Assembly (NCBI GenBank): GCA_963755715.1
Contig: CAVWLW010000073.1
Coordinates: 64,001 to 128,000, forward strand
Reading direction: 5' to 3'
DNA from: an uncultured delta proteobacterium
Lineage (GTDB): Bacteria > Desulfobacterota > Binatia > UBA9968
DNA: 64,000 bases
The translations under genes and the position numbers were made by a program. Positions 5,492-64,000 of the stretch are shown here, piece by piece. Within the stretch, counting starts at the first letter, position 1. Each line of letters starts with the position of its first letter. The notes below the pieces were generated by a model. That model did no database searches and was not told where the DNA came from. It saw nothing but the letters and a program-made list of their open reading frames with translations.

Positions 5492-7139
5492 CTGTGATTC
5501 CCTCACGTACCCAGGCAGCCGCTCTTTATCTTTATTAAAGACTTTGGCTCCAGGTGCAGTTCTGCTTTTCATATACTCCTCCGCCATTTTTTTGCTTCAT
5601 CCTTTGCCTAACCTCCCTTTTCACGATGACTGGACTTACGCTTGGAGCGTTGAACATTTTCTAAACACGGGTGAACTCCAGGTTCTTGACTGGTCCGTTC
5701 ACTATCCATTCGTGCAAATTCTTTGGGGCGCCTTGTTTTGCCTACCTTTCGGGTTTTCATTTTCTGCTCTTAGAGTTTCCACAGTGGTGCTCGCGTGGGT
5801 TGGGGCCGTGGCCTTATATGGTACGTTGCGCGAGTTGGGACGGGCTCGCAGCGAGAGTCTTATTGCCACTGTTGTCCTTGTTGCCAATCCTGTGTTTTTT
5901 GTCCTGGGCTTCTCCTTCATGACGGATGTCCCGTTTGTCAGCTTCGCCAGCGTGGCATTTTTCTTCGTCACCCGGGGACTTTCCCGGAAAAGCCCTTCTC
6001 AAATCTATCTCGGGTGCATTTTTGCGGCGTGTGCCCTCTTCATAAGACAAATAGCCGTTGCGATACCAGCCAGCCTACTGCTTTATTTTCTTTTTACGCC
6101 ATCTCACAGGTCGTGGAGATATCTTTTACCCACCAGTGGAATTTGTTTACTGTTCTTCCTTGCCCCTATTTTAATTGCTCAAATCTTTGGTGTGACGTCC
6201 GCGTCTAAATCGCTGACGACTTGGGTGATCGATTTTTGGCTTCATCGTTATACCCAAGCAGTGCCCGGCCTACTGCGAATCTTCATCCATACCGGCCTTG
6301 CCCTTTTCCCTCTGAGCATGCCTATAGTCGCCTCTGTCTATAGGCGTCCTTTGTTTTGGGTTGTTGTTGCCGCTTTATCTATTCTAACGGCCTGCTCGAT
6401 TTTGATTGCGGGTGAAATTCCCAATGTGCAAGATGGCATGTGGCAGTTGAATACCCTCGGCAGAGAACGTCACTTATTGCAGGGCTCGCCAGCTCGTGAT
6501 TTCTTGCCTCCGTGGTTGAATCCTCCTCTTTTCGTACTTTCGCTTTTTTCTTCTGCGGTGGTTATTGTGAAAGTGGTCGATGTGATCCTTGCCGGTATTG
6601 GAAATCCACTTGGCCTTTTCGTTTTGTACGGGTCCATTCAGTTTGCCCTAATCATGGTTCTCTGGTTCTTTGGTCCATGGGGTTCTGATCGGTACTCTAT
6701 GGTCCTATTCCCGCCTCTGATCATCATACTTACGAATAGCCAGATAAAAGCAAAGGTGGTGGCGCTCGCAGGTGTCACCGTTCTGTTTGCTTTATCGATG
6801 CTCGTAACTTGGAACGAGACCCAAACTAGTCGCGCTATCGCTCAAGGGGTAGCATGGCTGCGCGCAAGGAATATTCCTTTTGCCAGTATTGATGCAGGAT
6901 ACGTGTTCAACGGCTGGAACCTTTATGCCCATTCCGAAAATCTACCGCCTGGAGCTATACCTGGCAGAGATGTTCCTTTGGTCACATCAGCGGAGAAGAA
7001 ACCTTATGTGGTCGCAGCTTCTCCTATAGCGGGCTATAGAGTAATTCATGAATATAGCTGGGCAATTCCACTCACATCTTTCAAGCCTAAAGTTTACGTA
7101 GTAGAGCAGCTATCTCAAACGTCGAAGAACAAAGACTAA
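5442..7139 (+). CDS. GT-C fold (ArnT/PMT, GT39-like) membrane glycosyltransferase
   Basis: PFHDDWTYAWSV acidic motif after TM1, SFMTDVPF, many TM segments. True start may lie slightly downstream. Confidence 0.75.
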   Translation: MLSRTHAAGSNGSKQFDCDSLTYPGSRSLSLLKTLAPGAVLLFIYSSAIFLLHPLPNLPFHDDWTYAWSVEHFLNTGELQVLDWSVHYPFVQILWGALFCLPFGFSFSALRVSTVVLAWVGAVALYGTLRELGRARSESLIATVVLVANPVFFVLGFSFMTDVPFVSFASVAFFFVTRGLSRKSPSQIYLGCIFAACALFIRQIAVAIPASLLLYFLFTPSHRSWRYLLPTSGICLLFFLAPILIAQIFGVTSASKSLTTWVIDFWLHRYTQAVPGLLRIFIHTGLALFPLSMPIVASVYRRPLFWVVVAALSILTACSILIAGEIPNVQDGMWQLNTLGRERHLLQGSPARDFLPPWLNPPLFVLSLFSSAVVIVKVVDVILAGIGNPLGLFVLYGSIQFALIMVLWFFGPWGSDRYSMVLFPPLIIILTNSQIKAKVVALAGVTVLFALSMLVTWNETQTSRAIAQGVAWLRARNIPFASIDAGYVFNGWNLYAHSENLPPGAIPGRDVPLVTSAEKKPYVVAASPIAGYRVIHEYSWAIPLTSFKPKVYVVEQLSQTSKNKD

Positions 7140-7222
7140 CCTCCGTAGGCAACTGTGCTTGGTTGCAGCAAATCACAGTATAGCCGTAAACTTTTTTCTG
7201 CCGTTGGCACCTGAGCAGTTTG

Positions 7223-8900
7223 ATGTCGAGAAATAAACTTACGCTGCTCGGAGCGCTATTTCTTCTCCTCGTTTTTGTCGCGCAGGGAATTTTATTCATC
7301 CAAGCCAACTCTCAAACTGTCGATGAGGCCATGCATCTCGCAGCAGGCTATTCTTATCTTGCGAAAAAAGACTTTCGTATCGAGCCGCAAAATCCGCCCC
7401 TCATTAAGGAACTTCTAGCTCTTCCACTTTTTCTCAGTTACAGACTGCCTTTCAATCCAGATCCTCAACATTGGCGCGACAGCAGATGGTTACTTGATCG
7501 GACGGGACTTACTTTACAACTCGACGCCCAGTGCGGATCGAATGCTTGCTTTGACTCGGTTCCCTAATTTATTTCTCGGCACCATCCTGGTAGCGCTCAT
7601 CGGATGGTGGGCCTACCGCCTTTGGGGCAGTCGGGCAGCCTTGCTGGCCATGGCGCTTGCGTCTTTCGAACCCAATCTCGTTGCCCATTCCTCTCTCGTG
7701 ACCACCGATATCGGAGTCACTTTGTTCATTTTTCTTACCGTCTATCTTTTCTGGGAATATGTGAATCGACCCACATGGACGTTTTTGGTCGGTACCGGCA
7801 TTTCGACAGGTATGGCCCTGGTTGCCAAATATTCAGCCGTTCTGGTCATCCCGATAATTGCTCTGCATCGTTGCTGCTTCTTTTTTGACTGGCAGCAAGC
7901 CTGCTGTTCCGTTGCCCAAAACGTGGAACCCAAATAAACCACGACACAAACTTCTCCAAGCGGCGGCGGTTCTTTCGCTTATACTTTTTGTTGCATTGCT
8001 GACGATTCCTCCAGCCTACTTGTTTCAAGGATTCCAGCCCTGGTTATCCGGCTTTCATCAATTTCTGACTTTGTCACAGGAAGGCTTACCGGCCTTTTTC
8101 TTTGGCGAATATTCTTGGCACAACTGGTGGGGCTATTTCCCGCTCGCCTTTCTCATCAAGACACCCGTGGGCAGCCTGGTGCTCGTCACTATCTCGCTTG
8201 TTTTCTACCGCACCGGGAGTCCTCTCGGATACCGCCAAGCATTATTTCTTGTGCTACCGGTTACCCTAATCTTTCTCGCCATGACGCAGGCGAAGACGAA
8301 TATCGGCCTGCGTCATATTCTTCCCGTTTATCCGTTTCTCTTCGTCCTGGCCTCGCGTACGGCGACCCTTCGCTTTCGCCGCCCTTCGCTCGCGCTGTTA
8401 CTGATTGGGATCCCGCTCGCCTGCACGGCTATATCGTCGTTGCGCATCGCGCCGCATCAGCTTGCGTATTTCAACGAATCGGTCGGCGGTCCGGAGCAGG
8501 GTTACCGTTACTTAAGCGATTCCAATCTGGATTGGGGCCAAGATCTAAAAGGACTGAAGGCGTACATGGAAAGGAAAAGCTTCCGATTATCTATCTGTCC
8601 TATTTCGGAACGGCACCGCCGGCGTATTACGGCATTCGCTACCAAGATGTCGCTAGTAAAGGCACCCTAGGACCGCCCCCGCCTGAGAAGGTTCCGGCCG
8701 ATGCACCGCGCAAGATCCTTGCGATCAGCGCTTACAATTTGCAAGACGTTTCGAAAGCCGACAATCCGCTGTTTCGGTGGCTCTGGACGCGACGACCGAT
8801 AGCAAAGATCGGCTACTCGATTTTTGTCTACGATCTGACCAATGATCAAGAAGGTATAATTAAACTGGAGGAAATTTACGTTAAACCAAGATCACCCTAA
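7223..8900 (+). CDS. GT-C fold (ArnT/PMT-like) membrane glycosyltransferase (frameshifts ~7490, ~7860, ~8570)
   Basis: TVDEAMHLAAGY, NPPLIKEL, HSSLVTTD, IGLRHILP, SDSNLDWGQDL and PIAKIGYSIFVYD motifs spread over four ORF pieces. Confidence 0.8.
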
Positions 8901-9859: not shown

Positions 9860-10849
9860 TTATTTTAAACCCAAGCATTGCGTCTTCGCCGGCCCTGCGT
9901 TCGCGTTTTCTTGATCGATGAGAAAAAGTTCGTTGGCCCGGGCGAAGCTCATGAGATAGCGTCCCATCACAAGCATCTGGGTGTTGTATTCCATCAGGCA
10001 TCTTCGCTTGTTCGCTAATTCCTGATCCGATAGGGCCAATGAGATCCATTCTGATCCCTCATCGGGAAAGCCCTCGGGAGGATTTAGCCGGGCTCCCATG
10101 CCTGCCCCACTGCCAACCGGCCACTGGCGAAAGTGAACTAAGAAATTGAGGACCTTGGGATCAAACGTCGGATAGTTCTTCCTATATGTCTTTAGGGACT
10201 TGCTAACAAAAAAGTAGGTTGAACAATGATCAGGGTGTTGATCTCTTGAATCAGCGACCGCAATAAGCGACGGATGAAAGTCCAGGAGCAATTTTTCTAT
10301 TTCTCGCTTCACGTCCTCGCCGTTAAATTCTATATTCGGCAGCAACGTATCGTCGACCTGAGGCCGATCGTCTAGCGTAAAAGGAGAGCGAAAATAGGGG
10401 CGCCTGTCAATCCAATGCTTCTGCAGGAGATTGCGTAGCCCACCATCCGGAAAGTTCAAAAAAACTACATCCTCCTTCTTCATTCCCAGAGCGCGAAGCG
10501 CTTGACGCGCTTCCTTTTTGCGCAGCTTTCCATAGTTGCGATAATCCTGTGCAGTGGGGCGAGCTATCCGGGTTTCCTTTTCGACCCCTTCGGGAAAACC
10601 GTCGCCGCTGGTCATGAACACAACTTTCACCGATCCCCCGAGGCTGAGCACCCGCTGAATAAGACCTGCGGCTGCCAGACTCTCATCGTCTGGATGCGGG
10701 GAAAAAACCATGAGTCGGGTGTTCTTAGATAGAAATGGCTCAAGACGCTGCGGTGCGTCTGCTCCGTGTGCGTAAGGAGTTGGCAACAGCGCACAAACAA
10801 GGAAACATAGCAGATATCCTCGCCATGGACTCGACCATTGATTTCTCAT
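9860..10849 (-). CDS. PIG-L/LmbE family deacetylase with signal peptide
   Basis: FSPHPDDE, VFMTSGD, LNFPDG and DQHPDH metal-binding motifs. Confidence 0.9.
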   Translation of the reverse strand: MRNQWSSPWRGYLLCFLVCALLPTPYAHGADAPQRLEPFLSKNTRLMVFSPHPDDESLAAAGLIQRVLSLGGSVKVVFMTSGDGFPEGVEKETRIARPTAQDYRNYGKLRKKEARQALRALGMKKEDVVFLNFPDGGLRNLLQKHWIDRRPYFRSPFTLDDRPQVDDTLLPNIEFNGEDVKREIEKLLLDFHPSLIAVADSRDQHPDHCSTYFFVSKSLKTYRKNYPTFDPKVLNFLVHFRQWPVGSGAGMGARLNPPEGFPDEGSEWISLALSDQELANKRRCLMEYNTQMLVMGRYLMSFARANELFLIDQENANAGPAKTQCLGLK

Positions 10850-11237
10850 TTGTTGATTTCGCCTCTCGATCCAATAAGTCTTAAAATGTCGATCTCCTGA
10901 ATAGTAGCTCCGTATATCATAATCGGCGAACCGACCAGAAATAGCGATGAATGGCTCGTTCGAGCCTCATTATGAAAGATTTTGATGCGCTCTGAACAGG
11001 CGAGCGTCAAGCTCATGCCGCTAGCGAGTTGGATCACCGGGCTCGGGTAACGTACCAGAATTTAAAATGGTGGATTTAACAACTGGGCTCAATCGCCTGC
11101 GGCTGTATGCATAATCATAATAAAGTTGCGCGCAGAGTCAATTCGGAAAGCATGATAAAAGATCCAACCGGCATACCGTTCCGAAGGAATTCAGTACCGC
11201 ACTGAAGATCGTAAGAATCGTAATATTTCGATAACGA

Positions 11238-13172
11238 TTATCCAGCCATCGCGGCGACTGCGTTTTGCCCAGGAACGCCAAGCCCACGTCGAGCCAACTC
11301 AGGCACAGCCGTCACTTCCACGATGGAGGCGGGCCCGTTGCCATTGGTCCGCACCAGAAGCTGGCGAGAATGAAAGGGACGCAGTGTCGCGCGATGGCCC
11401 ACACTGAATACCGTCGTTCCCGCGAGCCGTTCGCGCACCAGTCGATAAAGCCGTGCCTCCGTTGCCTCGTCAACCGCCGAGGTCGCCTCGTCGAGAAAGA
11501 GCCAATCGGGTTTCTGGACCAGCGCTCGAGCGAAGGCGATGCGCTGCTGCTCGCCCGGGGAGAGTTGGAGCGCCCAATGGCCAACCTCGTCGAGTCGAAC
11601 GACTAAGTCACGGAGTCCCACGGCCTCCAAAGCCTCGCGCACTGTCACGTCATCCACCCCACCCGCCGGCATCGGATAACTCACCACTTGCCGAAGTGTG
11701 TCAATCGGCAGGTAGGGCTTCTGCGGCAGAAAGAGGACTTGGGCGCCGCTGGGTCCGCGGATCTCGCCATGCCCAAACGGCCAGATGCCGGCGACCGCGC
11801 GGAACAGCGTACTCTTTCCCGAACCGGAAGCTCCTCCGAGGAGAACTGTGTCTCCACGCAAGATCGAGAGATTCACATCCGCGATAAGCGGCTGACCATC
11901 GGGTAGATAGAGATCCACACCCTCAACTGTCAGATGCATGGCGTCTCCGTCGACGCGCCGGACGCCATCGCCAGTCGCCGCCTGGATGCGCACGCGGTCA
12001 AGCGCCTGCTCGAAACCGGAGAGCCGCTCAACCACCGCGCACCATTCAGCGATCACCTTATACGAGTCGATAAAAAAGCTAAGCGAAGCCTGTACCGCAC
12101 TGAAAGCGCCGATGGTTTGTATGAGCCCACCCAGAGTAAGATCGCCGCTGAAGTAGCGCGGCGCCGCGACAAGCGATGGGAAAATCCAAGCCGCTTGTTG
12201 GTAACCCGAAGTGAAGTAGGTCAGCCGCTTCTGACGGCGCATGATGTCCCACCAGTTCATCACCACCGCCTCGAACCGTTCCCGAAAACCACGGAGCTCG
12301 TCCGCCTCGCCCCGGTAGAGCGCCACTCCCTCGGTGTTCTCCCGGAAGCGTACCAGGCCGAACCGGAAGTCGGCTTCACAACGCTGCTTGTCGTAGTTTA
12401 GCCGGACGAGCGGACGGCCAATCCAGTGAGTGAGCCAAGTGCCGGCGATCGCGTACAAGATCGCCGCCCATACCATGTAGCCGGGCAGCATAATGGAGAA
12501 CCACCCGCGAAGCGGAACGGTGAGCGTTCCGGACAGCGCCCAGAGGATCGCCACAAAGGCAACCAAAGTTACCAGCGCGCGCAGGCCTCCGATGACAAGC
12601 GTGAGGGTATGAGAAATGAGCAGGTGAACGTCTTCAGCGATGCGCTGGTCGGGATTGTCCGTTTCATGCGCCACGAGTTGCATCCGATAGTAAGCGCCAT
12701 CGGCCAGCCAAGCGCGAAGATAGCGCTCGGTAAGCCAGCGCCGCCAGCGGATCTCGAGCATCTGGCTCAGATAAAGCTGGTAGACAGCGAAAAAGATGAT
12801 AAGGACTATAAGCCAGGACAGACCGATCAGCTGTTGGAAGAACAGCGCATGGTTCTTATCCTGCAGGGCCGTGTAGAAGGCGTTGTTCCACCGGTTAATG
12901 AGAACACTCATGTGGACCATCGCGAGAGTGAGTGCGACCACGACGACGACCAGCCCCCAAGCCGCCCAGCGGTCCTCAGAGGACCAGTAGGGTCGAATCA
13001 TGTCCCATGCAGTCGGGAGCAATTGCCGCAGGCGAGTTGTGGTTGAATCTTCGGTTGGGCTGGGACTGGCGATTTCGCCATCGGTCGAACTTTGAACGCT
13101 GCCTGCAGGCTTCTGCTGATCGCCAACGGCAGAATTTTTTTGCTGCTTTCCGTTATCCAGCTGCCTGCGCAC
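11238..13172 (-). CDS. Fused ABC transporter permease/ATPase, YddA/BacA(Rv1819c)-like (ABCD family)
   Basis: DNPDQRIAED, EADFRFGLVR, Walker A GASGSGKST, signature LSPGEQQR, Walker B WLFLDEATSA. Confidence 0.92.
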   Translation of the reverse strand: MRRQLDNGKQQKNSAVGDQQKPAGSVQSSTDGEIASPSPTEDSTTTRLRQLLPTAWDMIRPYWSSEDRWAAWGLVVVVVALTLAMVHMSVLINRWNNAFYTALQDKNHALFFQQLIGLSWLIVLIIFFAVYQLYLSQMLEIRWRRWLTERYLRAWLADGAYYRMQLVAHETDNPDQRIAEDVHLLISHTLTLVIGGLRALVTLVAFVAILWALSGTLTVPLRGWFSIMLPGYMVWAAILYAIAGTWLTHWIGRPLVRLNYDKQRCEADFRFGLVRFRENTEGVALYRGEADELRGFRERFEAVVMNWWDIMRRQKRLTYFTSGYQQAAWIFPSLVAAPRYFSGDLTLGGLIQTIGAFSAVQASLSFFIDSYKVIAEWCAVVERLSGFEQALDRVRIQAATGDGVRRVDGDAMHLTVEGVDLYLPDGQPLIADVNLSILRGDTVLLGGASGSGKSTLFRAVAGIWPFGHGEIRGPSGAQVLFLPQKPYLPIDTLRQVVSYPMPAGGVDDVTVREALEAVGLRDLVVRLDEVGHWALQLSPGEQQRIAFARALVQKPDWLFLDEATSAVDEATEARLYRLVRERLAGTTVFSVGHRATLRPFHSRQLLVRTNGNGPASIVEVTAVPELARRGLGVPGQNAVAAMAG

Positions 13173-14263
13173 TAGTCACCTCCGCAGATTCCTTGTGTAG
13201 TCACTTTTCCGTTCGGCGATTCGCCGATTTCTCGTAACAAGACCGCCAAAGTAGCTGCTCGTGCCTGTCTGTTGGAGACGACTGAGCCCGCTGTGATACA
13301 CACGGCATCCCACAGAGGATTCGCGCTACTATCTACGGTTTTCCGCCAATCAAGTCTTTCGAGGAGCTTAAGTTTTCTTTGCCAATCGTAAGGATATTTT
13401 TCGAGCAACGTTCTTCCGACGCCTCCGAGAGCACGCAAAACGACCGCATGAGTATTGATTTTCTCTTGACGGAGTTCGGAAGCGCTAAGTTCTCCACTTT
13501 TGACTTTCTGCCAGTCACCAATGATCTTTGAAAGCTCTGTCCAGTATTCGACAGCCCTCTTGAGAATTTCTGCGTAGACCGGTGATCCCTGTTCAGCGAT
13601 TTTTTTACCCAGCAATTCTTCATTCGCTTCGTATAAGGCGGAAATGGTAAAAAGCTTAGGAGACCTCCGCGGAATCGTTACCTTCTCTTTCTCCACCATG
13701 TCCCGGAATACGTCGACCTGCTCGGCCAGCTCCATTGTGAGCGCGGAAAGGTTATCTCGACGATCATAGAGCATCCCTAGCGATTTTGACGTCTGCTGCA
13801 CGAATCGATTTAAATCTGAGAACATCTGCTGAAGCCGTTCCATACTTTCCGTCTCAAAGAGAAGCACCGAGATTTTTTCCTTCCCAAGCGCAGGATTCTC
13901 CTTGAGTGCCGCAGCAATCGCCGCGCACCGATGCTGGCCATCGTTGATAATGAACTCCACGTTTTCGAGCTCCATCTCTAAAGTTCCAACTTCGGCGTTC
14001 TCAGCTGAAGAGACGAACTTTACCGGACACGAATAGGACGCAGTGATGGACGAAAACAGGTATCCGTCCCCATTTTCGAGGATGTACCTCGTGATGTCTG
14101 GAACTCTCGCCTTGTTCAGAACTCGTTGCGCCCGCAGCTCCGGCGTGCACTGTTCCCAATCATCGAATTTGAATAAATGAGGAATCTCTGAAAGCGGGAC
14201 CAGCAGCGAATAATACTGACGCCCGCCCATGTTTCCCCTTATTACAGGAAAAGAAAGTTTCAT
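13172..14263 (-). CDS. dndB: DNA sulfur modification protein DndB (DGQHR-domain DNA-binding regulator)
   Basis: 363 aa. FPVIRGNMGGRQYY, RAQRVLNKARVPDI, YLFSSITAS, INDGQHR, QQMFSDLN and KLFTISALY motifs typical of DndB. Confidence 0.88.
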   Translation of the reverse strand: MKLSFPVIRGNMGGRQYYSLLVPLSEIPHLFKFDDWEQCTPELRAQRVLNKARVPDITRYILENGDGYLFSSITASYSCPVKFVSSAENAEVGTLEMELENVEFIINDGQHRCAAIAAALKENPALGKEKISVLLFETESMERLQQMFSDLNRFVQQTSKSLGMLYDRRDNLSALTMELAEQVDVFRDMVEKEKVTIPRRSPKLFTISALYEANEELLGKKIAEQGSPVYAEILKRAVEYWTELSKIIGDWQKVKSGELSASELRQEKINTHAVVLRALGGVGRTLLEKYPYDWQRKLKLLERLDWRKTVDSSANPLWDAVCITAGSVVSNRQARAATLAVLLREIGESPNGKVTTQGICGGD

Positions 14264-14290
14264 TTGGTAACCACCATTGTTGCAATCATC

Positions 14291-14410
14291 CCAGCTGTCG
14301 ATCGTTTAAGCATGAGCTGATTTCTAACAGTCGACCAGCTGTTTGTCAATAACCTATGAGCTGTAATATTAATTTATAAGAGCTGATGTATGGAAATCAG
14401 TACAGCTGTA
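14291..14410. repeat. Phased array of six (C/G)AGCTG(A/T) boxes at 22-bp period over the dndB promoter
   Basis: AGCTG starts at 14293, 14315, 14337, 14359, 14381 and 14404, separated by non-repeated AT-rich spacers. Confidence 0.85.
14321..14349 (-). promoter_or_regulatory. Sigma70-type promoter for dndB
   Basis: Minus strand TTGACA (14349-14344), 17 nt, TAGAAA (14326-14321) preceded by an extended TG. About 55 bp upstream of the dndB ATG. Confidence 0.65.
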
Positions 14411-14492
14411 TTGAGTATGAAATTCAAACGACATGAATTCTTAAGATATTGATTTATAATACATTTTATCTAAACGCCGCGAACATGCCGCC

Positions 14493-14670
14493 ACGCCACG
14501 AAAAATCCTACCGATCAGCACGACCAATCTCCAAGACATTTTCAACGCCCGTGGGCCGCCTGGCTGCGCCCGCACCACCCGATCGCAAAAATCGGTTATT
14601 CGATTTTTATCTACGACTTGAGCGGGAACTCGGAGGGATTGATGGAATTGGAGCAGACCTGTGCTGTGTC
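14493..14670 (+). pseudogene. Relic 3' end of a GT-C glycosyltransferase paralogous to 7223..8900
   Basis: Translates TPRKILPISTTNLQD...(frameshift)WLRPHHPIAKIGYSIFIYDLSGNSEGLMELE, versus APRKILAISAYNLQD...WLWTRRPIAKIGYSIFVYDLTNDQEGIIKLE at ~8700-8880. Confidence 0.8.
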
Positions 14671-14708
14671 GCAGGACTGTCACCGAGAGATGAAGTCTCA
14701 CAGTCGCG

Positions 14709-15599
14709 CTAGAACCAATCTCCTAGCTGCCAGGAATAACCCGCCTCGTTCATGAGCTTTCGGGTACTCTGCCACACTTTGTATTTCTCATACATCGACA
14801 GGTCCGACTTCCAGACCTCGGGTCGGGCTTTGCCGATAAAACCGCGAGGCAGCTTTGCCACTGGTCCCGTGCGTGCCCTGACCTCGCCATACACCGGAAT
14901 CGGGGTGCCGCCGGTTTCCATCACGTCGGCTTTGTTGCTGTCGATTGCGAGGTTTATGGCGTCGTCGCTCCAGGAGATACCGAGGAATTTCGCCAAGCCC
15001 TTTAGAGTATCGAGGGGAGAATTCCAAAGGTCCTCATAGCGGATCTCGTGGAATTCCTCCGACGATAGCTTTTTTGCTGCGGCCTTGACTGCTTCGACGT
15101 GCTGGACCCACATGGCCGCGGCCACTTTCGCGCTGCCGGGCGCCCAACTCATGCCCCAACTCCGGGAAGCGGTCATGAGCGAAGCGACCACGTCTCGACA
15201 ATCGCGCATCAAATGAATGAATCGGCTGTCGGGCAGCAGATCCTTGATCTCGGGAATGTACAAAGCATGCGACGGGGTCTTCTCCAGAAACAATTCTTCT
15301 GGTTCCAAACCATCAACGATGGGTTTGAGTAAAGCCGCTAGATAGTTTTTTAAAATGGCCCGAAATTCTTCCTCGCGAAAATAGGCCTGCGGACCCGCTG
15401 CATGACCCAGTCCACCGTTGAGGTGCCGCGTCTTCTGATCGTTCCACGACCGGAGCTGCGGCCCGACATATAAGCTGAAAAAGTGTGATTCTTCCCCGGA
15501 ACGAATCCTTGGATGGCTCGCCAAAAGTTTCTGGAGCCAGGTGGTGCCGCTGCGCGGGCAGCCGACGAGAAACACCATATTCTTGCCTCTGTACTCCAT
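14709..15599 (-). CDS. Sulfotransferase family protein
   Basis: 5'-PSB loop GCPRSGTT, EKTPSH, HLMRDCRDVVAS, IRYEDL. Confidence 0.92.
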   Translation of the reverse strand: MEYRGKNMVFLVGCPRSGTTWLQKLLASHPRIRSGEESHFFSLYVGPQLRSWNDQKTRHLNGGLGHAAGPQAYFREEEFRAILKNYLAALLKPIVDGLEPEELFLEKTPSHALYIPEIKDLLPDSRFIHLMRDCRDVVASLMTASRSWGMSWAPGSAKVAAAMWVQHVEAVKAAAKKLSSEEFHEIRYEDLWNSPLDTLKGLAKFLGISWSDDAINLAIDSNKADVMETGGTPIPVYGEVRARTGPVAKLPRGFIGKARPEVWKSDLSMYEKYKVWQSTRKLMNEAGYSWQLGDWF

Positions 15600-36358: not shown

Positions 36359-37159
36359 GCGATCGATTCCTCCGGATAGCTAAAACATTTTCTTGGATGA
36401 TTTCCGAGCGTCTACCCAGGACAATAACACCAGCGTTCTCGAACCAACTCATCGTGACCAATTCTCGTTGATCCCTTGATGACGCATGTCCAAAACAATG
36501 CACAAGGCCAAATCGCTGCCGTGCGCTCGGAACTAAGAGCGGCTGTGTGCGGCTGAAATTTCGCCCGCCGACACGTTCGTTCGCGTCGCGCTTAACCGCG
36601 TTTGCGAGCCAGCGCTCGCTGCGTCTCCCGGACGGCTGTGCGGACCCATAAAGTTGTTCCCGCCAGAAATACAATCGGCATGATCAGTGTAGCGAAGGTC
36701 ATAGAATTCACCACCTCTCCTTATATCGCAGATACAAGTGGCAACGATCGTGCCAGAGCACCTCCAGTTTTTTGTTATCTGCAAATGATGAGAATCGCAC
36801 GGGACACCAACGATCGCGTATTCACGTTAACCAAACCCTAGCTAAAGAGCATGTCGCTCCATCGGCACACGCCGAAATAGTGACGTCCGGAAAAAGCGAG
36901 GATGTTTCATCGTGGCGGAGAACTCGCGCTAGTGATTGGACACGTGGGCTTGTCAGGTACGCCGACTTGGCGCGTCACTACTCTTCGATACCGGGGGCAA
37001 CGGCTGGAAACGACCGGCCTCAAGCAAAAGCCTGATTCGACACCTGTCGAGTATAAGGCGCCATTTTTTCGTCACTAGTAACCGCGCACGCTCTTGCGAG
37101 ATCACCATAACTTCCCACACCCTGCTATCCATAAGCGTTTTCTCGACATTGATAGCGGG

Positions 37160-38492: not shown

Positions 38493-39707
38493 ATGCAAGA
38501 AACTGAAAAGAACGACTTTCCAAAGCGGACGCGTTCCCTCACGTTGCTCAGACACTGGAAGATTGGTTTGCTGGCGGTCTGTCTAGCGGCAGTGATTGCC
38601 TACGTTTTCTGGAGCAATTCCGGCGGAGCCCAATCGCGCGCCGCATCCCAAGGGCCGGTTTCCGGCGCGCAAAGCGTCCCGGTTGCCACAGTAGCAGCAA
38701 AAACCGGTTCCATCCCCGTCTACCTCACCGGCCTCGGCTCTGTTACCCCGCTCAACACTGTGACAGTCAAGACTCAGGTCAACGGGCAGCTCATGAGCGT
38801 CCGGTATCAGGAAGGCCAAATCGTTCGTGCCGGCGACTTGCTGGCTGAAATCGACCCGCGCCCACTCCAGGCCCAGCTGACCGAGTTCGAGGGACAGCTG
38901 GCGCGTGACCAGGCTCTGCTGGACAACGCGCGCCTCGATCTCCAGCGTTTCACAGTGCTCGTCCAGCAGAATGCAATTCCAAGGCAACAATACGATACGC
39001 AAGTATCCCTTGTGCACCAGCTCGAAGGCACCGTCAAAAACGATCAGGGACTGATCGAGGGTGTTAAAGTGCAGCTTATCTACACCCGCATCACCGCGCC
39101 GGTCAGCGGGAGGGTCGGGCTGCGCCTGGTGGATCAAGGGAACTTCGTGCAAACGACTGACACCACCGGCCTGGTTGTGATCACGCAACTCCAGCCGATC
39201 ACGGTGATCTTTACTGTCGCCGAGGACAACATTCCGGCCGTGCTCGACAAGCTCAAGCATGGGGTTCGGCTGCCGGTCGAGGCGTATGACCGCGCGCTGC
39301 AACGCCGCCTTGCCACCGGATACTTATTGACGGTGGATAATCAAATCGACGCGACCACCGGCACCGTCAGGCTGAAAGCGCTCTTTCCCAACGACGACAA
39401 CGCTCTTTTCCCCAACCAGTTCGTAAACGCGAGACTCCTGGTGGAAACGCAACACGAGGCCACGTTGATTCCGACGCCGGCCATTCAGCGCAACGCCCAG
39501 GGCGCCTTTGTCTACTTGGTGAAGCCCGACCAAACCGTGGCGCTGCATACGATTTCGGTGGGCACAACCGATGGCGAAATGACGGCGGTAGAGGGATTAA
39601 AGGCCGGCGATGTCATTGCGGCCGACAATTTCGACAGGCTGCGCGACGGAGTCAAGATAGCCGCGCGAGATCGGTCGGCGAATGCGCACGGCGGGACCGG
39701 GGCGTGA
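38493..39707 (+). CDS. mdtA: RND efflux membrane fusion protein MdtA/MuxA
   Basis: [50 protein letters not shown]. Confidence 0.92.
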
Positions 39708-42700
39708 GTCCTTCTCGTCCGTTCATTCTTCGGCCGGTCGCGACGTCGTTGTTAATGGCAGCCATTCTACTCGTCGGCATCGCCGGCTATCTGCAATTGC
39801 CTGTTTCGGCGCTGCCGGAGGTCGACTACCCCACGATCCAGGTGCTGACTTTTTTCCCCGGAGCGAGTCCGGATGTCATGGCCTCCGGTGTTACCGCGCC
39901 GCTCGAGAGGCAGTTCGGTCAGGTACCGGGCCTAAACCAGATGACCTCGACGAGCTCGGGCGGAAGCTCGGTCATCACGTTACAGTTCTCGCTTAACCTC
40001 GATATCGATGTGGCGGCGCAAGAGGTACAGGCGGCGATCAATGCAGCGCAGACCTTTCTGCCCAGCGATCTTCCCAGTCCGCCCATCTACAGCAAAACCA
40101 ACCCGGCGGATACGCCGGTTCTGACCTTGGCGTTGACATCGAATTCCATGCCGCTGTCGAAGGTACAGGACCTGGCAGATACACGCCTTGCTCAGAAGAT
40201 CTCACAGTTGCCCGGTGTCGGACTGGTGACCATCAGTGGTGGCCAGAAGCCCGCTGTTCGGGTTCAAGCCAATCCCACGGCGCTCTCATCCTACGGCGTC
40301 AACTTGGAGGATGTGCGCACGGCGCTGCAGCAGACAAGCATCAATCGCCCCAAGGGCAACTTTGACGGGCCGCACCAGTCGTACCAAGTCGGCGCCAATG
40401 ATCAGTTGTTGACGAGCAAGGAGTACCGGTCGGTTGTCGTCGCCTTTCGCAACGGGGCGCCGGTCATGCTGTCGGATGTGGCAACGGTGATGGATGGCGT
40501 CGAGAATGTAAACCAGGCCGCGTGGAGGAACAACGTCCCGGCGGTCATCGTCAATATCCAGCGCCAGCCCGGCGCCAATATCATTCAGGTTGTCGATCGC
40601 ATCAAAACGCTTTTGCCACAACTGAACAGTACGCTGCCCTCGTCCATTCAGGTCTCGGTTCTGACGGATCGCACCTTGACCATTCGCGCGTCGGTCGAGG
40701 ACGTCCAGTTCGAGCTCATGTTGACCGTGGCGCTCGTGGTGCTGGTGATTTTTCTCTTCTTACGGAATGTCGCGGCGACGATCATCCCGAGTGTTGTGGT
40801 ACCGCTGTCTCTCGTGGGCACGTTTGCCGTGATGTATCTGCTCGGCTACAGCCTCAACAACCTGACCCTCATGGCGTTGACGATCTCGACCGGTTTTGTT
40901 GTCGATGACGCGATCGTCATGATTGAGAACATCGTTCGTTACATCGAAGAGGGCGAGAAGCCGCTGGCGGCGGCGCTGAAGGGAGCGGAGCAAATCGGGT
41001 TTACCATTGTATCGCTGACGGTTTCGCTGATTGCCGTATTGATACCGTTGCTGTTCATGGGGGACATCGTCGGGCGCCTGTTCCGGGAATTTGCGATTAC
41101 CCTCAGCGTCACCATTCTTGTCTCCGCAGTGGTCTCACTGACCCTCACTCCCATGATGTGCTCTAAGTTGTTGCGGCACAAATCCTCGAGCCAGCAGGGA
41201 CGCCTTTACCGGGCATCGGAGCGCGCATTCGACAGTATCATCGAGTTTTATGGCAAGACTCTCCGATGGGTGCTGCGCCACCAGACCGCGACTCTGTTTA
41301 CGGCCGCTGCCACGCTCGCGCTGACCGCGTGGCTTTACATCATCGTCCCGAAAGGGTTTTTCCCGGTGCAGGATACCGGTGTGATCCAGGGCATTTCCGA
41401 AGCGCCCCAGACCACTTCCTTTCCTGCGATGGCCCAGAGACAGCAAGCCCTCGCTCAAGTCATTCTCAAGGATCCCGCGGTCGAGAGTCTTTCCTCGTTC
41501 ATCGGTGCGGATGGCATCAACACCACCCTTAATAGCGGGCGCATTCTCATCAATCTCAAGCCGCTGGCCGAGCGCAGAATAAGCGCGACTGAGGTGATGC
41601 GCCGGTTGCAGCCGGCGTTGGCGAACGTCGACGGACATCAGGTTGTACATGCAGCCGGTGCAGGATTTGACCATTGAGGATCGGATCAGCCGAACGCAGT
41701 ATCAGTATACGCTGGAAGATCCCGACGCGAATGAGTTGAGCCTATGGACCGCGCGGCTGGTCGACAAGCTCAAGGCGCTGCCTCAGCTCCGCGATGTCGC
41801 CACCGATCAGCAGACGGAGGGTTTGCAAGCGGCGCTTGTCATCGACCGCGTGACCGCTTCCCGGCTGGGGATCACGCCACAGATGATCGACGACGCCCTT
41901 TACGACGCCTTCGGTCAACGCCAGGTCTCAACCTTGTTCACACAGTTGAATCAATATCACGTGGTGCTGGAAGCCCTGCCGGAGCTCCAGCAGAATCCGG
42001 CCAAATTGGCAGAGATCTATGTCCGTTCCTCAGCCACAGCTCCGACATCACCACCGGCTACCGGTTCGGACGCGTCGGTCGCGATTGGACCTTCGACTTC
42101 AGCGGCGGCAACGGTAGGCTCATCCGCGCCTAGCACGACAACGAGTATTCCTACCACCTCCAACATCAATGGAGCGGCCGTGCCTCTCAGCACGTTTACT
42201 CATTTTGAGTCGGGCACCGCGCCCCTTGCCATCAACCATCAGGGGCAATTCCCTGTCGTCACCATTTCATTCAATCTCGCTCCCGGCGCCTCTTTGGGAG
42301 AGGCCACGAATGCAATTGAGCAGACGCGCAAGGAGCTTGGCATGCCGCTAAGCATCCAGGCGGCATTTCAAGGCACGGCAGAAGCGTTTCAAGCCTCGCT
42401 GGCCAATGAGCCAGTGCTCATTTTGGCAGCGCTGGTGACCGTCTACATCGTGCTCGGGGTTCTTTATGAGAGCTACATCCACCCGATCACGATTCTGTCC
42501 ACCCTGCCCTCGGCCGGGGTGGGCGCGATTCTAGCACTGCTGATCTGCCGCTCGGAACTGAGCGTCGTTGCGCTCATCGGCATTATCCTGCTGATCGGCA
42601 TCGTGAAAAAGAACGCGATCATGATGATCGATTTTGCGCTCGACGCCCAGCGCCATGGGGGCAAAAGCCCGGTGGACGCGATTTATCAGGCGTGTCTGCT

Positions 42701-42950
42701 GCGCTTTCGTCCCATCATGATGACCACCCTGGCCGCTCTCTTGGGTAGTCTGCCGCTGGCTCTCGGTTCCGGGATCGGTTCGGAATTGCGCCGGCCCCTC
42801 GGCATCACCATCGTGGGCGGACTGCTCCTGAGCCAACTCCTTACCCTATACACGACGCCGGTCATTTACATCTTCTTCGACCGGCTTGCCATGAAAACCT
42901 CAAAGTTCCGCGCCGGCCAAGAAGGCGCGGAGCCCGTTCCAGTGGAGTAG
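39704..42950 (+). CDS. mdtB: RND efflux transporter MdtB/MuxB (frameshift ~41640)
   Basis: [60 protein letters not shown]. Confidence 0.92.
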
Positions 42951-42952
42951 CC

Positions 42953-45900
42953 ATGAGCCTTTCCGCCCCATTCATTCACCGGCCCGTGGCGACCGTTTTA
43001 CTGACCGCGGCAATTGCACTGGCGGGGGCCGTCGCCTTCACGGTCCTGCCGGTATCGCCGCTGCCCCAGATTGACTTCCCCACCATTACGGTGGCAGCGG
43101 CTTTTCCGGGAGCAAGTCCCGAGACCATGGCTTCCTCGGTCGCGGCACCGCTGGAGCGGCAGTTCGGGCGGATCGCCGGCGTGACGGAAATGACGTCAAC
43201 GAGCTCTCTCGGCGCGACTGCGATCACACTGCAGTTCGACTTGAACCGGAATATCGACGCGGCGGCGAGAGACATTGAAGCCGCCATCAATGCCGCTCGT
43301 GGTTATCTGCCGACTGATCTGCCGAACAATCCGACGTATCGAAAGGTCAATCCGGCAGATGCGCCAATTCTGATTGTGGCGCTGACGTCGGACGTCTACG
43401 ATCCCGGCCGCCTCTATGATGTGGCCTCGACGATCTTGCAGCAGAAGCTGTCGCAGATAGACGGAGTCGGGCAAGTCACTGTCGGTGGCAGTTCGTTGCC
43501 TGCTGTGAGGGTAGAGGTGAATCCCACCGCGTTGAACAAGTACGGGCTCGGCCTGGAGGATATTCGCAACATGTTGAGCGTACAGAATGCCAATCGGCCG
43601 AAGGGACGGATAGCGGATGATACGACCACGTCGGATCTGGCGGCGAACGACCAGCTCCTCAAGGCCGACGCCTATAGGCCGCTGATCGTCAGCTATCAGA
43701 ATGGCGCTGCCCTCAAGTTGTCGGATGTCGCCAACGTACAGGATTCGGTGGAAGACTTACGAGCGGCCGGAATAACCAATGGAAAGCCGTCCGTGCTGGT
43801 GGTTATTTCTCGCGAGCCGGGGGCGAATATCATCGCTACCGTGGACCGCGTGCGGGAGGCCCTTCCTCAGCTCAAGGCTTCCATTCCTGCAGCGATCGAT
43901 CTCACGGTTGTCCTCGATCAGACGACCACGATCCGGGCATCCGTGCATGACGTGGAGCAGACGCTGCTTATCTCGATTGGGCTCGTCATTATCGTCGTGT
44001 TCATCTTTCTCAGAAATGTCCGCGCAACGTTTATTCCAAGCGTGGTGGTCCCGGTCTCGTTAATCGGCACCTTCGGGGTGATGTATTTGTGTGGTTACAG
44101 TCTCGACAACCTCTCGTTGATGGCGCTCACGATTTCAACCGGCTTCGTCGTCGATGACGCGATTGTCGTCATCGAAAACGTGACCCGGCATCTCGAGCAG
44201 GGAATGCGACCGATGGAAGCCGCGTTGAAAGGAGCCCAAGAAATCGGCTTCACGGTACTGTCCATCAGTATCTCGCTGGTTGCCGTATTCATTCCGATCT
44301 TGCTGATGGGTGGCATCGTCGGGCGCTTGTTCCGCGAATTTGCCGTCACCCTCTCGACTGCCATTCTCGTTTCGCTCGTCGTTTCATTGACCACCACTCC
44401 CATGATGTGCGCCAGGCTTCTCAAGCACCAGCGCGAGGAAGATCACGGCAGACTCTATCGGGCGAGCGAGGAAGTTTTCCTTTGGGTACTGCGCCTGTAC
44501 GAACACAGCCTTGCATGGGTCCTGCGCCACGCGGCCTTGACGCTGGGTGTTCTCCTGCTCACGATCGGCGTGAATGTCTATCTCCTCGTCATTGTGCCTA
44601 AAGGATTTTTTCCGCAGCAGGATACCGGGCGCATCATTGGAGGCATTCAGGGTGTCCAAGATACGTCCTTTCAGGCGATGCGGCAAAGGATTACGCGCTT
44701 CGTAGACATTGTTAGAGCTGATCCGGCCGTAGCCAACGTGATGGCCTTTACAGGCAGCGGGGCAGGCACGACGACGAATACCGGCAGAGTATTTATGGCG
44801 TTGAAGCCGCTCGAGGAGCGCAACGTCAGCGCAGATCAACTGATCAATCGTTTGCGGCCAAAACTGGCGACGGTGCCGGGAGCGGCGCTTTATCTGCAAG
44901 GGGTGCAAGACTTGCGCATCGGAGCCAGGCTGGGGAACGCGCAATATCAATACACGATTCAGAGCGATAATCTTGAGGATTTGACCCGATGGGGGCCCAC
45001 TCTCCTCCAACAAATGAGGAAGCTCCCCGGCCTGGCGGACGTCAGCAGCGATCAACAGAACAACGGCCTTCAGGCATCACTCGTATACGACCGTTTGACG
45101 GCATCGAGATTAGGAATCACGCCGCAGATGATTGATGACACGCTCTCCGATGCCTTCGGGCAACGGCAGGTATCGACGATGTTCACGCAATTGAACCAGT
45201 ACCACGTTGTCATGGAAGTGGAGCCAGAGTTCTGGCAAAGCCCGGAAGGACTGAAACAGATCTACGTTCGCGCGGCTAACGGCGGCGGTGGTTCCGCTAA
45301 GCGCATTCACCCATTACGAGCCAACCACGGCGCCCCTCGCTGTGAACCATCAGGGACAGTTTCCGTCGGTGACGCTTGTCGTTCAATCTTGCGCCCGGTG
45401 TCGCCCTCAGTGATGCCGTAAGCCGCATCCATCAGACTGGAACAGAGTATGGGAATGCCGGCGACAATTCATGGAAGCTTTTCCGGGACACTGCAAGCGT
45501 TCCAGGCGTCTTTGGCGAACTCAACCCCTTCTGATTACTGCCGCGCTGATAGCAGTCTACATCGTGCTCGGGTATTCTCTATGAAAGCTACATTCACCCG
45601 ATCACGATTCTATCGACTCTGCCGTCGGCGGGCATGGGCGCGGTCCTGGCGCTGTTGATCTGCCGCACGGATCTCAGTGTGATCGCTCTGATCGGCATCA
45701 TCCTCTTAATTGGTATCGTGAAGAAGAACGCGATCATGATGATCGATTTCGCGCTCGAGGCGGAGCGCCAGGAAGGCAAGAGCCCGCAGGAGGCGATCTA
45801 CCAGGCATGCCTGTTGCGCTTTCGGCCGATCATGATGACCACGATGGCGGCGCTCTTCGGGGCGCTGCCCCTGGCTTTGGGGACGGAGTCGGGTCGGAGC

Positions 45901-46073
45901 TGCGCCGCCCGCTCGGCATCGCCATCGTCGGCGGCCTGATCGTGAGCCAGATGCTCACCTTGTACACCACGCCGGTGGTGTATCTCTATCTTGACCGCTG
46001 CCGGCTGTGGTTCGAGCGCCGCCGACAGAACTTGCGCGACCGATGGCGCGCAGAAGCAGCGCCGGAATTGTGA
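42953..46073 (+). CDS. mdtC: RND efflux transporter MdtC/MuxC (several frameshifts, 45280-45900)
   Basis: [44 protein letters not shown]. Confidence 0.9.
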
Positions 46074-50399: not shown

Positions 50400-50910
50400 C
50401 TAGAGGTACTTCAAAAGCGTAAATTGAAATGTTGTACCGGGACTCTCATTAGGTACGGTCCAAAGGTGCCCGCCGTGGTTCTCGATAATCGAACGACTGA
50501 TCGCCAGCCCCATCCCCATTCCCTGCGATTTGGTGGTGTAAAAGGTATCGAAAATCTTTTCCAGATTCTGCCGAGTCGATCCCAATACCGGAATCTTGCA
50601 CGGCGACGAGTACTTTGTCTGATTCATGTTGACGAGAACGGATGAACAACTCTCGAGGTCGATCGGCTACTGATGCCATCGCTTCGATACCGTTCATCAC
50701 CAGATTGAGAATCACTTGTTGAAACTGGATCCGGTCACCCATCACAAACGGCAGATCATCGGCTAGCTCTGTCGGTAATGCAACACGATTTCGTCGCACT
50801 TCACCCTCGGCAAGCGCAATGACCTCCCCAATGGTGTCGTTGATGTTTAGTCGCACTTTCTCTGTATCCGTTTTCCTGACGAGCGCTCGAATGCGCGCGA
50901 TCACCTCACC
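50400..50910 (-). pseudogene. Orphan histidine-kinase C-terminal (HATPase) segment joined out of frame to the upstream kinase
   Basis: GEVIARIRALV...QQVILNLVMNG...GMGMGLAISRSIIENHGG, with no N-terminal part. Confidence 0.6.
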
Positions 50911-63646: not shown

Positions 63647-64000
63647 CTAGCGGTGCTGTAATTCATCCAGCTGTTGCTGGCTCTGGTTGAGCCGTTCCTG
63701 AAGCTGTTGCTGGTTCAACTCACGCTCGTTTTGGAGTTGCTCTAGTTGGTCTGGCCGCCGCAGCTGTTGCTGGCGTAGTTGGTTCAACTGCTGATCGTCC
63801 TGCAGCCGCTTCAACTGCTGCTCGTTCTGTATTTGATTCAATTGCTGCTGAACGTCATCGAGCCGGTCCTGTCGCTGAACGGGATTGGTTTGGCCGTGCT
63901 GTTGCAGTTGGTCCAACTGCCGCTGAACCTGATTTAATTGCTGATCGCGCTGGAGCTGGTCGAGCCGTTGTTGGTCGCGCAGCTCGTTCGCTTGCGCGCG
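63647..64000 (-). CDS. Glutamine-rich coiled-coil protein, 5' part outside the window
   Basis: Open frame from the window edge; repeated QQLNQL/QLDQLQ units. Confidence 0.65.
   Translation of the reverse strand, partial: RAQANELRDQQRLDQLQRDQQLNQVQRQLDQLQQHGQTNPVQRQDRLDDVQQQLNQIQNEQQLKRLQDDQQLNQLRQQQLRRPDQLEQLQNERELNQQQLQERLNQSQQQLDELQHR

Follow-up and report, generated by a model that had tools for sequence, protein, structure and literature searches.

In a 64,000-nucleotide stretch of DNA from an uncultured delta proteobacterium (Desulfobacterota; Binatia; UBA9968; assembly GCA_963755715.1, contig CAVWLW010000073.1, positions 64,001 to 128,000; hereafter the window, to whose coordinates positions refer unless another locus is named), the gene dndB overlaps a gene for a putative ATP-binding cassette (ABC) half-transporter. 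Here we show that this pair is a conserved unit under purifying selection which moves together through changing flanks, in a genome in which the phosphorothioation genes dndCDE were not found, and that a periodic array of short hexamers upstream of dndB tracks one clade of DndB proteins across phyla, whatever cargo lies downstream. We propose, with a probability of roughly 0.55, that a mobile autoregulatory cassette made up of the array and dndB took up a transporter gene, and that the pair is neither a relic of a dndBCDE operon nor the regulator of a distant dnd locus. Annotations everywhere call DndB a "DNA sulfur modification protein"; what we describe is a lineage of this known regulator family that stands apart from the system it was named after, and whose cis-element and cargo are both new.

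The dndB-transporter pair and its junction

The dndB gene (13172-14263, minus strand; an open reading frame (ORF) of 363 aa in this assembly, against 369 aa in relatives) and the ABC half-transporter gene (11238-13172, minus strand; ORF of 644 aa) have base 13172 in common, with no gap between them, and the junction reads ggaggtgacTAGTG. A Shine-Dalgarno-like hexamer, GGAGGT (13178-13183, minus), lies in the 3' end of dndB, 5 nt before the GTG start codon of the transporter gene (13170-13172, minus), which is itself located within dndB. An earlier note on this DNA had reported this hexamer and its distance from the GTG correctly; the TAGTG overlap that it also reported is present in the assembly but is owed to an extra T at 13199 (minus), private to this assembly, which shifts the frame of the last dndB codons and creates the TAG stop (13172-13174, minus). 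This T is absent from all four aligned genus relatives and is likewise missing from the DNA and RNA-library contigs covering that position. Without it, dndB encodes 369 aa and ends at a TAA 15 nt further downstream, giving a 20-nt overlap with the ABC ORF, and it is this 20-nt overlap, not the TAGTG form, that the relatives have. The extra T is possibly an assembly indel, because other genes in the window also look frameshifted: two tandem AcrB-type RND genes (39704-42950 and 42953-45939) are each split into two ORFs and a histidine kinase gene (50449-52307) is also split, through either real frameshifts or assembly indel errors.

An overlap of stop and start codons is by itself common. The Shine-Dalgarno-like GGAGG and the GTG are identical in 10 of 10 loci, and the coupling is therefore a feature of the lineage. 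The 18-nt sequence GGAGGTGACTAGTGCGCA is kept in all 10 loci amid diverged flanks, which is beyond chance, and its conservation is in part due to dual coding. RNA-library contigs from soil runs of two studies bridge the junction (13057-13351 and 13041-13283), which is compatible with co-transcription. No RNA-library contigs were found over 14418-14800 or 10934-11201 (X15 and X17); these gaps are uninformative and not usable, because the flanks differ between strains. An Rfam search of 10700-14800 returned no family, riboswitch or other RNA element at E <= 1, and no cobalamin riboswitch upstream of the ABC gene.

Of 30 other genomes in the genus, 11 have a DndB orthologue of 84-94% identity, so that the pair is patchily distributed (12/31). 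The ABC gene follows dndB in all nine evaluable genus relatives, the remaining two being contig ends, and at least 10 genomes contain the junction. ABC orthologues of at least 72% identity are found only in genomes with dndB, while ABC homologues of 48-69% identity in related genomes come without DndB, the array or the N-terminal extension described below. The junction in relatives and on independent contigs rules out a misassembly or a one-off deletion scar. The earlier note had reserved the possibilities that the junction was unique to this contig or unsupported by reads and that homologues always retain dndCDE; these are contradicted by the 10 or more genomes and the bridging contigs, and the undescribed module that it had suspected has become a conserved two-gene unit.

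Pairwise dN/dS ratios among seven sequences were 0.07-0.14 for dndB and 0.15-0.40 for the ABC gene overall, rising to ~0.4-1 over its first 60 codons. For the same genome pairs, synonymous sites have diverged 2-4 times as much in dndB as in the ABC gene (window-G018, 0.356 vs 0.080), which hints at recombination inside the pair or at separate histories of the two genes. In two genomes (G003:C2:117704-120708 and G029:C8:301520-304324) both dndB and the ABC gene are frameshifted, with stop codons also in G029, which means either that the two genes have decayed together or that the long-read assemblies contain indel errors.

The genes flanking the pair vary between genomes. A PIG-L deacetylase gene and a methyltransferase gene, which the earlier note had thought might also be under the control of DndB, follow the pair in only four of the nine loci with enough flank (the window, L109, L110 and L111, the last in another arrangement, as against L108, L025, L026, L027 and L041), and the PIG-L gene is preceded by a promoter-like site of its own (TTGACT-16-TATGAT, 11141-11114, minus); that extension of the idea is not supported. 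In the window, the pair sits within a glycan/envelope island (1782-23792) with several GT4 and GT2 glycosyltransferases, PMT_2/ArnT-like proteins, an acyltransferase_3, at least four methyltransferases, a sulfotransferase (14709-15599) and the PIG-L deacetylase.

DndB, the ABC protein and the phosphorothioation genes

The window DndB matches Pfam PF14072 at 352.7 bits (cut-off 29.1) over residues 5-347, TIGR03233, the equivalog model used by NCBI for naming DndB, at 344.8 bits (cut-off 328), the DGQHR domain at 229 bits and the PADLOC DndB model at 361.6 bits. The motif INDGQHR occupies residues 106-112 (DGQHR, 108-112), and among 27 DndB sequences D108, G109, H111 and R112 never vary, with Q110 conserved to at least 90%. 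The protein is laid out as a ParB/Srx-like N-domain with DGQHR, followed by a helical C-domain with R265-x6-H272, and its structure model has a predicted local distance difference test score (pLDDT) of 89.5. Against solved structures, the four top matches of the N-domain model all have the ParB/sulfiredoxin fold: PadC (Z 7.6; root-mean-square deviation 3.2, 100 aligned), the ParB of pNOB8 (Z 7.2), the repressor KorB (Z 6.4) and sulfiredoxin (Z 6.0), values of 6.0-7.6 being middling by the structure-comparison tool's own note. With the DndB model, Foldseek gave ParB-N as best match (probability 0.99, E 5e-3) and nothing at E <= 0.001, and a PDB sequence search with DndB matched no chain. The N-domain is thus predicted, from its model, to adopt the ParB/sulfiredoxin fold. 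The helical C-domain (~residues 170-350) matched only generic helical proteins (Z <= 5.6) and carries an HEPN-type Rx4-6H motif, R265-QEKINT-H272, in which R265 does not vary and H272 is conserved to at least 90%. Passages of PMC3632139 (Makarova and colleagues) describe DndB as ParB-like plus HEPN and tie it to abortive-infection and toxin-antitoxin systems.

The ABC protein matches ABC_membrane_2 (194.9 bits, residues 65-341), SbmA_BacA (132.2 bits) and ABC_tran (67.2 bits). Its closest solved relative is 6tqe, which we take to be Rv1819c (E 8.9e-97, residues 55-623), followed by ABCD1 and ABCD4 (E 1.4e-50 for ABCD4). The ATPase motifs are intact, namely GASGSGKST (Walker A), LSPGEQQR (signature), LFLDEATS (Walker B and catalytic Glu) and GHR (H-loop), and most of their residues are invariant among 11 ABC sequences. 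By sequence, the protein is thus a predicted half-transporter of the ABCD/Rv1819c/SbmA-BacA type with one ATPase domain, and it is the product of the genome's sole gene of the ABCD/SbmA type. Transporters such as Rv1819c, BacA, SbmA and ABCD4 move cobalamin, bleomycin and peptides; for the window protein we infer both substrate and direction of transport. It shares the ABC_membrane_2/SbmA_BacA membrane domain and the intact ATPase domain with these transporters but differs from them in its start codon inside dndB and in an N-terminal extension of ~45-55 aa (~residues 1-55), which is weakly constrained and occurs only in DndB-linked forms. A complex prediction for DndB with ABC residues 10-644 scored 0.00, which says nothing either way. 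The GC content is 0.495 for dndB, 0.37 for the array, 0.604 for the ABC gene and 0.56 for the genome.

The pair does not appear to be part of a Dnd phosphorothioation system, which would comprise DndC with DndD/DndE. Pfam scans of 60 of the 62 ORFs in the window (the other two being small ones at 36772-37035 and 63647-63916) contained no PAPS_reduct/DndC, DndE, SMC-type DndD or class-V aminotransferase, and the earlier note reported no dndFGH or ssp genes in the window either, for which these scans included no models of their own. In the genome (7.4 Mb, 76 contigs, 93.6% complete, so that a locus could lie in the missing part), a profile search found neither DndC nor DndE, and DndD only at 21 bits, below the cut-off. 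Because the DndE family control was positive in no control genome, the absence of DndE rests on tblastn, which with DndC, DndD and DndE from a canonical locus gave no matches in the genome. Across 61 related genomes, one search gave DndC above cut-off in four other genomes of the order and did not find it in any of the 12 genus genomes that have the pair. The profiles, ORFs and genome search bear out the earlier note on the pair of dndB with a YddA/BacA-like transporter outside dndCDE and on the lack of dndA/C/D/E in the window. They speak against its suggestion that DndB regulates a distant dnd locus, as does an array that is unique in the genome.

The upstream array and the DndB lineage

Upstream of dndB lies an operator-like array of six (C)AGCT(G/C) hexamers (14292..14408, minus strand), at 14292-97, 14314-19, 14336-41, 14358-63, 14380-85 and 14403-08 (all minus). 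The AGCT cores fall at -33, -55, -77, -99, -121 and -144 from the dndB ATG, with spacings of 22, 22, 22, 22 and 23 bp, and are separated by AT-rich spacers (GC 0.37). A triple-site pattern gave three overlapping matches, all at the array, as against 0.00 expected from 100 shuffles. Chains of at least four AGCT sites at 21-23 bp occur twice in the 7.4 Mb, as the six-site array, the genome's only chain of at least five sites, and as a four-site chain (C54:186650-186718). The latter was considered as a second DndB target and rejected as probably due to chance, because it lies inside a gene and has mixed flanks. In the genus alignment, the array is kept in all relatives and the spacers drift.

Array sites bracket a promoter-like site (14321..14349, minus), read from the sequence as TTGACA (14344-14349, minus), a 17-nt spacer and TGt-TAGAAA, with the -10-like hexamer TAGAAA at 14321-14326 (minus). 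The TTG and the TAGAAA region are conserved among relatives, and we regard the site as a candidate promoter.

The array extends well beyond the genus. Among the 80 public loci most like the window DndB (925,580 bases), arrays of 4-8 sites lie at most 300 nt upstream of dndB in 15, and chains of more than three sites occur nowhere else in these bases. Periodic chains of at least five copies of any 4-mer were found in 13 of the 80 upstream windows, compared to 0 of 3428 control windows, and the 4-mers concerned are all AGCT or GAGC. The unit can be written a-S-AGCT-S-t, with S at -1 in 31/33 genus units and 61/62 others and S at +4 in all 95 units, and a TTGAC(A)-like hexamer stands in phase with a site in the arrays listed. 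Carriers include metagenome-assembled genomes labelled Methylomirabilota, Gemmatimonas, Nitrospira, Akkermansia and Vulcanimicrobiota, isolates of Bradyrhizobium, Sphingomonas and Sandarakinorhabdus, and a Rhizobiales strain. A 15.4-kb plasmid of Neorhizobium sp. SOG26 (L112; NZ_CP025514.1), which has no dndCDE, bears a solo dndB (6660-7912) preceded by seven SAGCTS sites 21-23 bp apart, one gap containing AGATCT, with a divergent TIR-domain gene on one side and a CopG and two N6 DNA methylase genes on the other. In L044 a variant array of five GAGC(GG) sites at 21-22 bp, not SAGCTS, lies at -162 to -75 of dndB and may represent co-variation of protein and site.

A tree of 77 rows, from which L027, L061, L073 and L059 were left out as short or broken matches, places 35 DndCD-linked DndB rows on one side of a branch with a support of 99 (SH-like approximate likelihood ratio test, SH-aLRT) and the window DndB on the opposite side, among 41 rows without DndCD. 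The arrays all fall within one 28-row subclade (SH-aLRT 99), and the 35 DndCD-linked rows have none. Five Binatia-type rows (SH-aLRT 100) are nested in a 12-row clade (SH-aLRT 99), of whose seven other rows six have a partner of ~790 aa; the immediate sister of the Binatia-type rows is L030 plus L064, which have both partner and array (SH-aLRT 91). The earlier note's picture of a former dndBCDE regulator that lost its operon fits neither this separate, DndCD-free clade nor the pairing of its nearest relatives with the ~790-aa protein.

A survey of the neighbourhoods of the DndB clade, as that note had suggested, yielded four kinds of cargo: the ABC transporter in this genus and, elsewhere, the ~790-aa protein, a ~100-aa protein or nothing nearby, many array-bearing dndB genes standing alone. 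The larger partner (~750-815 aa) occurs in seven loci of different phyla (L028:3842-6289, L029:7120-9495, L030:4548-6890, L031:7101-9515, L034:7149-9530, L064:7112-9457 and L073:2119-4383) and, in the six where this was measured, starts -8 to +9 nt from DndB. These modules resemble the window pair in that their DndB proteins are its nearest relatives (48-68% identity) and are tightly coupled to the next gene, with L030 and L064 having the same SAGCTS array; they differ in that the partner is unrelated to the ABC protein, and it has no homologue in the window genome. The partner matched nothing in PADLOC or NCBIfam, and nothing in Pfam even at E <= 1. By eye it has GHKL-like motifs (ExxxNxxDA, DxGxG, GGTG), and in the Atlas HATPase_c_3 appears on 26-30% of members of clusters similar to it, which is a lead only; its structure model has a pLDDT of 50.3, with the N-terminal 330 residues mostly below 50. 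It is possibly a GHKL-type ATPase, judging by these motifs, and with DndB may constitute an undescribed two-gene defence-type module. The ~100-aa ORFs, of no known family, begin at most 13 nt after the dndB stop (L033:7114-7404, L039:7107-7460 and L043:7122-7424) and may be a third kind of partner. In phage and plasmid collections, DndB matches were all below 60% identity and no DndB-ABC pair was present among the rows inspected.

Proposed mechanism and alternative explanations

In the explanation we favour, the unit consists of the six-site SAGCTS array with its 22-bp period, laid over a putative sigma-70-like promoter, followed by dndB and the overlapping, translationally coupled ABC transporter gene. 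DndB would most likely occupy the array in a cooperative manner: each palindrome-like hexamer would take up one dimer, and the sites, two helical turns apart and spanning the -35 and -10 elements, would all lie on the same face of the DNA. By repressing its own promoter under the control of a nucleotide, bound DndB would shut off both dndB and the attached gene and so set the level of the latter. We read the array as the clade's operator because Salmonella enterica DndB is an autorepressor, shown to bind repeated short palindromic boxes in its own promoter (PMC4507180), and because a DndB-like protein bound ATP and GTP (PMC12704722); that DndB binds the array, that binding represses and that nucleotides gate it are proposed by analogy with these proteins. 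The local switch envisaged in the earlier note is thereby the best reading of an operator-like array over a promoter-like site, co-inherited with a clade across phyla. As for history, the simplest course would be that a module of array, dndB and partner exchanged its partner for an ABC gene of the resident type, and such a swap fits the contrast in GC content between dndB and array on the one hand and the ABC gene and genome on the other.

Several points weigh against this explanation. Coupling of translation as tight as this is found more typically between subunits of fixed ratio than between a regulator and its target. A regulator other than DndB could bind the array, and comparison with solved structures revealed no recognisable DNA-binding fold in the C-domain of DndB. 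The -10 element is weak, and a consensus promoter scan did not list the site at 14321..14349, because its -10 hexamer lacks the final T. The S. enterica box (TACGN10CGTA) is not present at the dndB promoter, and therefore the S. enterica precedent holds by analogy only; a single match to this box in the window, at 62193, is at chance level. Since many array-bearing dndB genes stand alone, DndB may have a function of its own, the array doing no more than holding DndB itself in check. The RNA-library contigs over the junction are no proof of a single transcript and may contain DNA, and the tree comes from a quick search with SH-aLRT support and a midpoint root, because of which the direction of the partner exchange is only inferred.

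Among the alternatives, the one that we take most seriously, while judging it considerably less probable, is that DndB and the transporter are a conflict- or defence-type two-gene system or physical complex, in which the ParB-type NTPase and HEPN-like DndB senses or acts on nucleic acid, the ABC protein is its membrane partner or effector, and the array merely keeps a potentially harmful DndB repressed. Relatives in the clade lie among TIR, Schlafen/AlbA_2, caspase-helicase, SNF2, Eco57I-type and N6 methylase genes, with IS21 IstB, integrase and relaxase genes also nearby; the tight coupling of the nearest relatives to the ~790-aa protein, the conserved HEPN residues with the abortive-infection and toxin-antitoxin links drawn in PMC3632139, the patchy occurrence of the pair and the breaks shared by both genes in G003 and G029 would all suit such a system. 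The ABC protein, however, is an ordinary full-length transporter alignable with 6tqe, it has DndB-free homologues in the genus, and its PADLOC matches are limited to the ATPase domain; the window pair is surrounded by a glycan-biosynthesis island and not by one of defence type, and the shared breaks could be long-read indel errors.

It is less probable again that a selfish cassette of array and dndB merely hitch-hikes ahead of a resident transporter gene, with read-through and no functional tie between the proteins. Such an origin is in keeping with the differing GC and third-position GC (GC3) of the two genes, with the higher synonymous divergence of dndB, with the barely constrained N-terminal extension of the ABC protein and with solo array-dndB cassettes being common in other phyla. 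It is the pair, though, and not a lone dndB, that recurs in different flanks; no checkable genus genome has dndB without the ABC orthologue or the ABC orthologue without dndB, and the overlap with its Shine-Dalgarno-GTG arrangement is kept in 10 of 10 loci. That the pair is a dndBCDE deletion scar, a misassembly or the regulator of a distant dnd or ssp locus we consider very improbable: DndB does pass the NCBI equivalog model and the assembly does have frameshift-like breaks, but the junction occurs in at least 10 genomes and on independent DNA and RNA-library contigs, DndC is found in other genomes of the order and in no pair genome, tblastn with the canonical proteins is empty, DndB falls outside the DndCD-linked clade and the genome holds no second array.

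With respect to known systems, the window DndB shares its Pfam/NCBIfam family, the DGQHR motif and a position at the head of an operon, overlapping the next gene, with DndB/DptB of S. enterica and Streptomyces lividans, and a promoter-box precedent with that of S. enterica (PMC4507180); it differs in belonging to a separate clade, in a genome without dndCDE, with a membrane transporter gene downstream, and in that S. enterica has two TACGN10CGTA boxes and the window clade a 6-8-fold SAGCTS array of 22-bp period. Its N-domain model aligns with KorB of RK2, ParB and PadC, but the protein has DGQHR and not the ParB arginine box, and no helix-turn-helix was recognised. In plasmid R1, parC spans the promoter. 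Evenly spaced short repeats flanking the core promoter of the binder's own operon are a likeness to ParR-parC, parC having two sets of five iterons (PMC2241845); unlike KorB and ParR-parC, the window locus is chromosomal, with no adjacent ParA, ParM or other partition ATPase. Neither the DndB-ABC pair nor a periodic array upstream of dndB is mentioned in the portions of PMC10853773, PMC12704722, PMC8569181, PMC4507180, PMC3632139, PMC8313283, PMC12137116 and PMC11662687 that were covered, the supplementary neighbourhood tables of PMC10853773 being outside this scope.

These patterns suggest that this DndB lineage is a portable, self-regulating switch which can be wired to different cargo genes. 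A broader view, to be held tentatively, is that the SAGCTS/22-bp array and DndB form a mobile cassette that is widespread and does not depend on phosphorothioation, and in which a ParB-fold, nucleotide-gated DndB sits on an iteron array with swappable cargo; equally doubtful as yet is the idea that the array is a parS-like site doubling as promoter, with DndB controlling or cooperating with the cargo. Since 41 of 76 public tree loci and the window have no adjacent dndCD, annotations as "DNA sulfur modification protein" over-call phosphorothioation. With the array, a ParB-fold protein of unsolved DNA-binding mode gains a concrete DNA target, and the array's occurrence in cultured strains and on a 15-kb plasmid makes it tractable for testing. 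If the proposal is true, DndB would serve mobile and defence islands as a general-purpose regulator or sensor and would not be a Dnd accessory, and the Binatia pair would be the first case of DndB gating membrane transport; gating of an Rv1819c/BacA-type transporter would tie a nucleotide-switch regulator derived from mobile elements to vitamin or peptide uptake in abundant uncultured soil bacteria.

The window genome also holds a second, distant DGQHR/DndB-like gene (G000:C10; L003:955-2064, minus strand), which matches PF14072 at 38 bits and, weakly, GmrSD_N, and adjoins a nitroreductase gene and a cupin gene.

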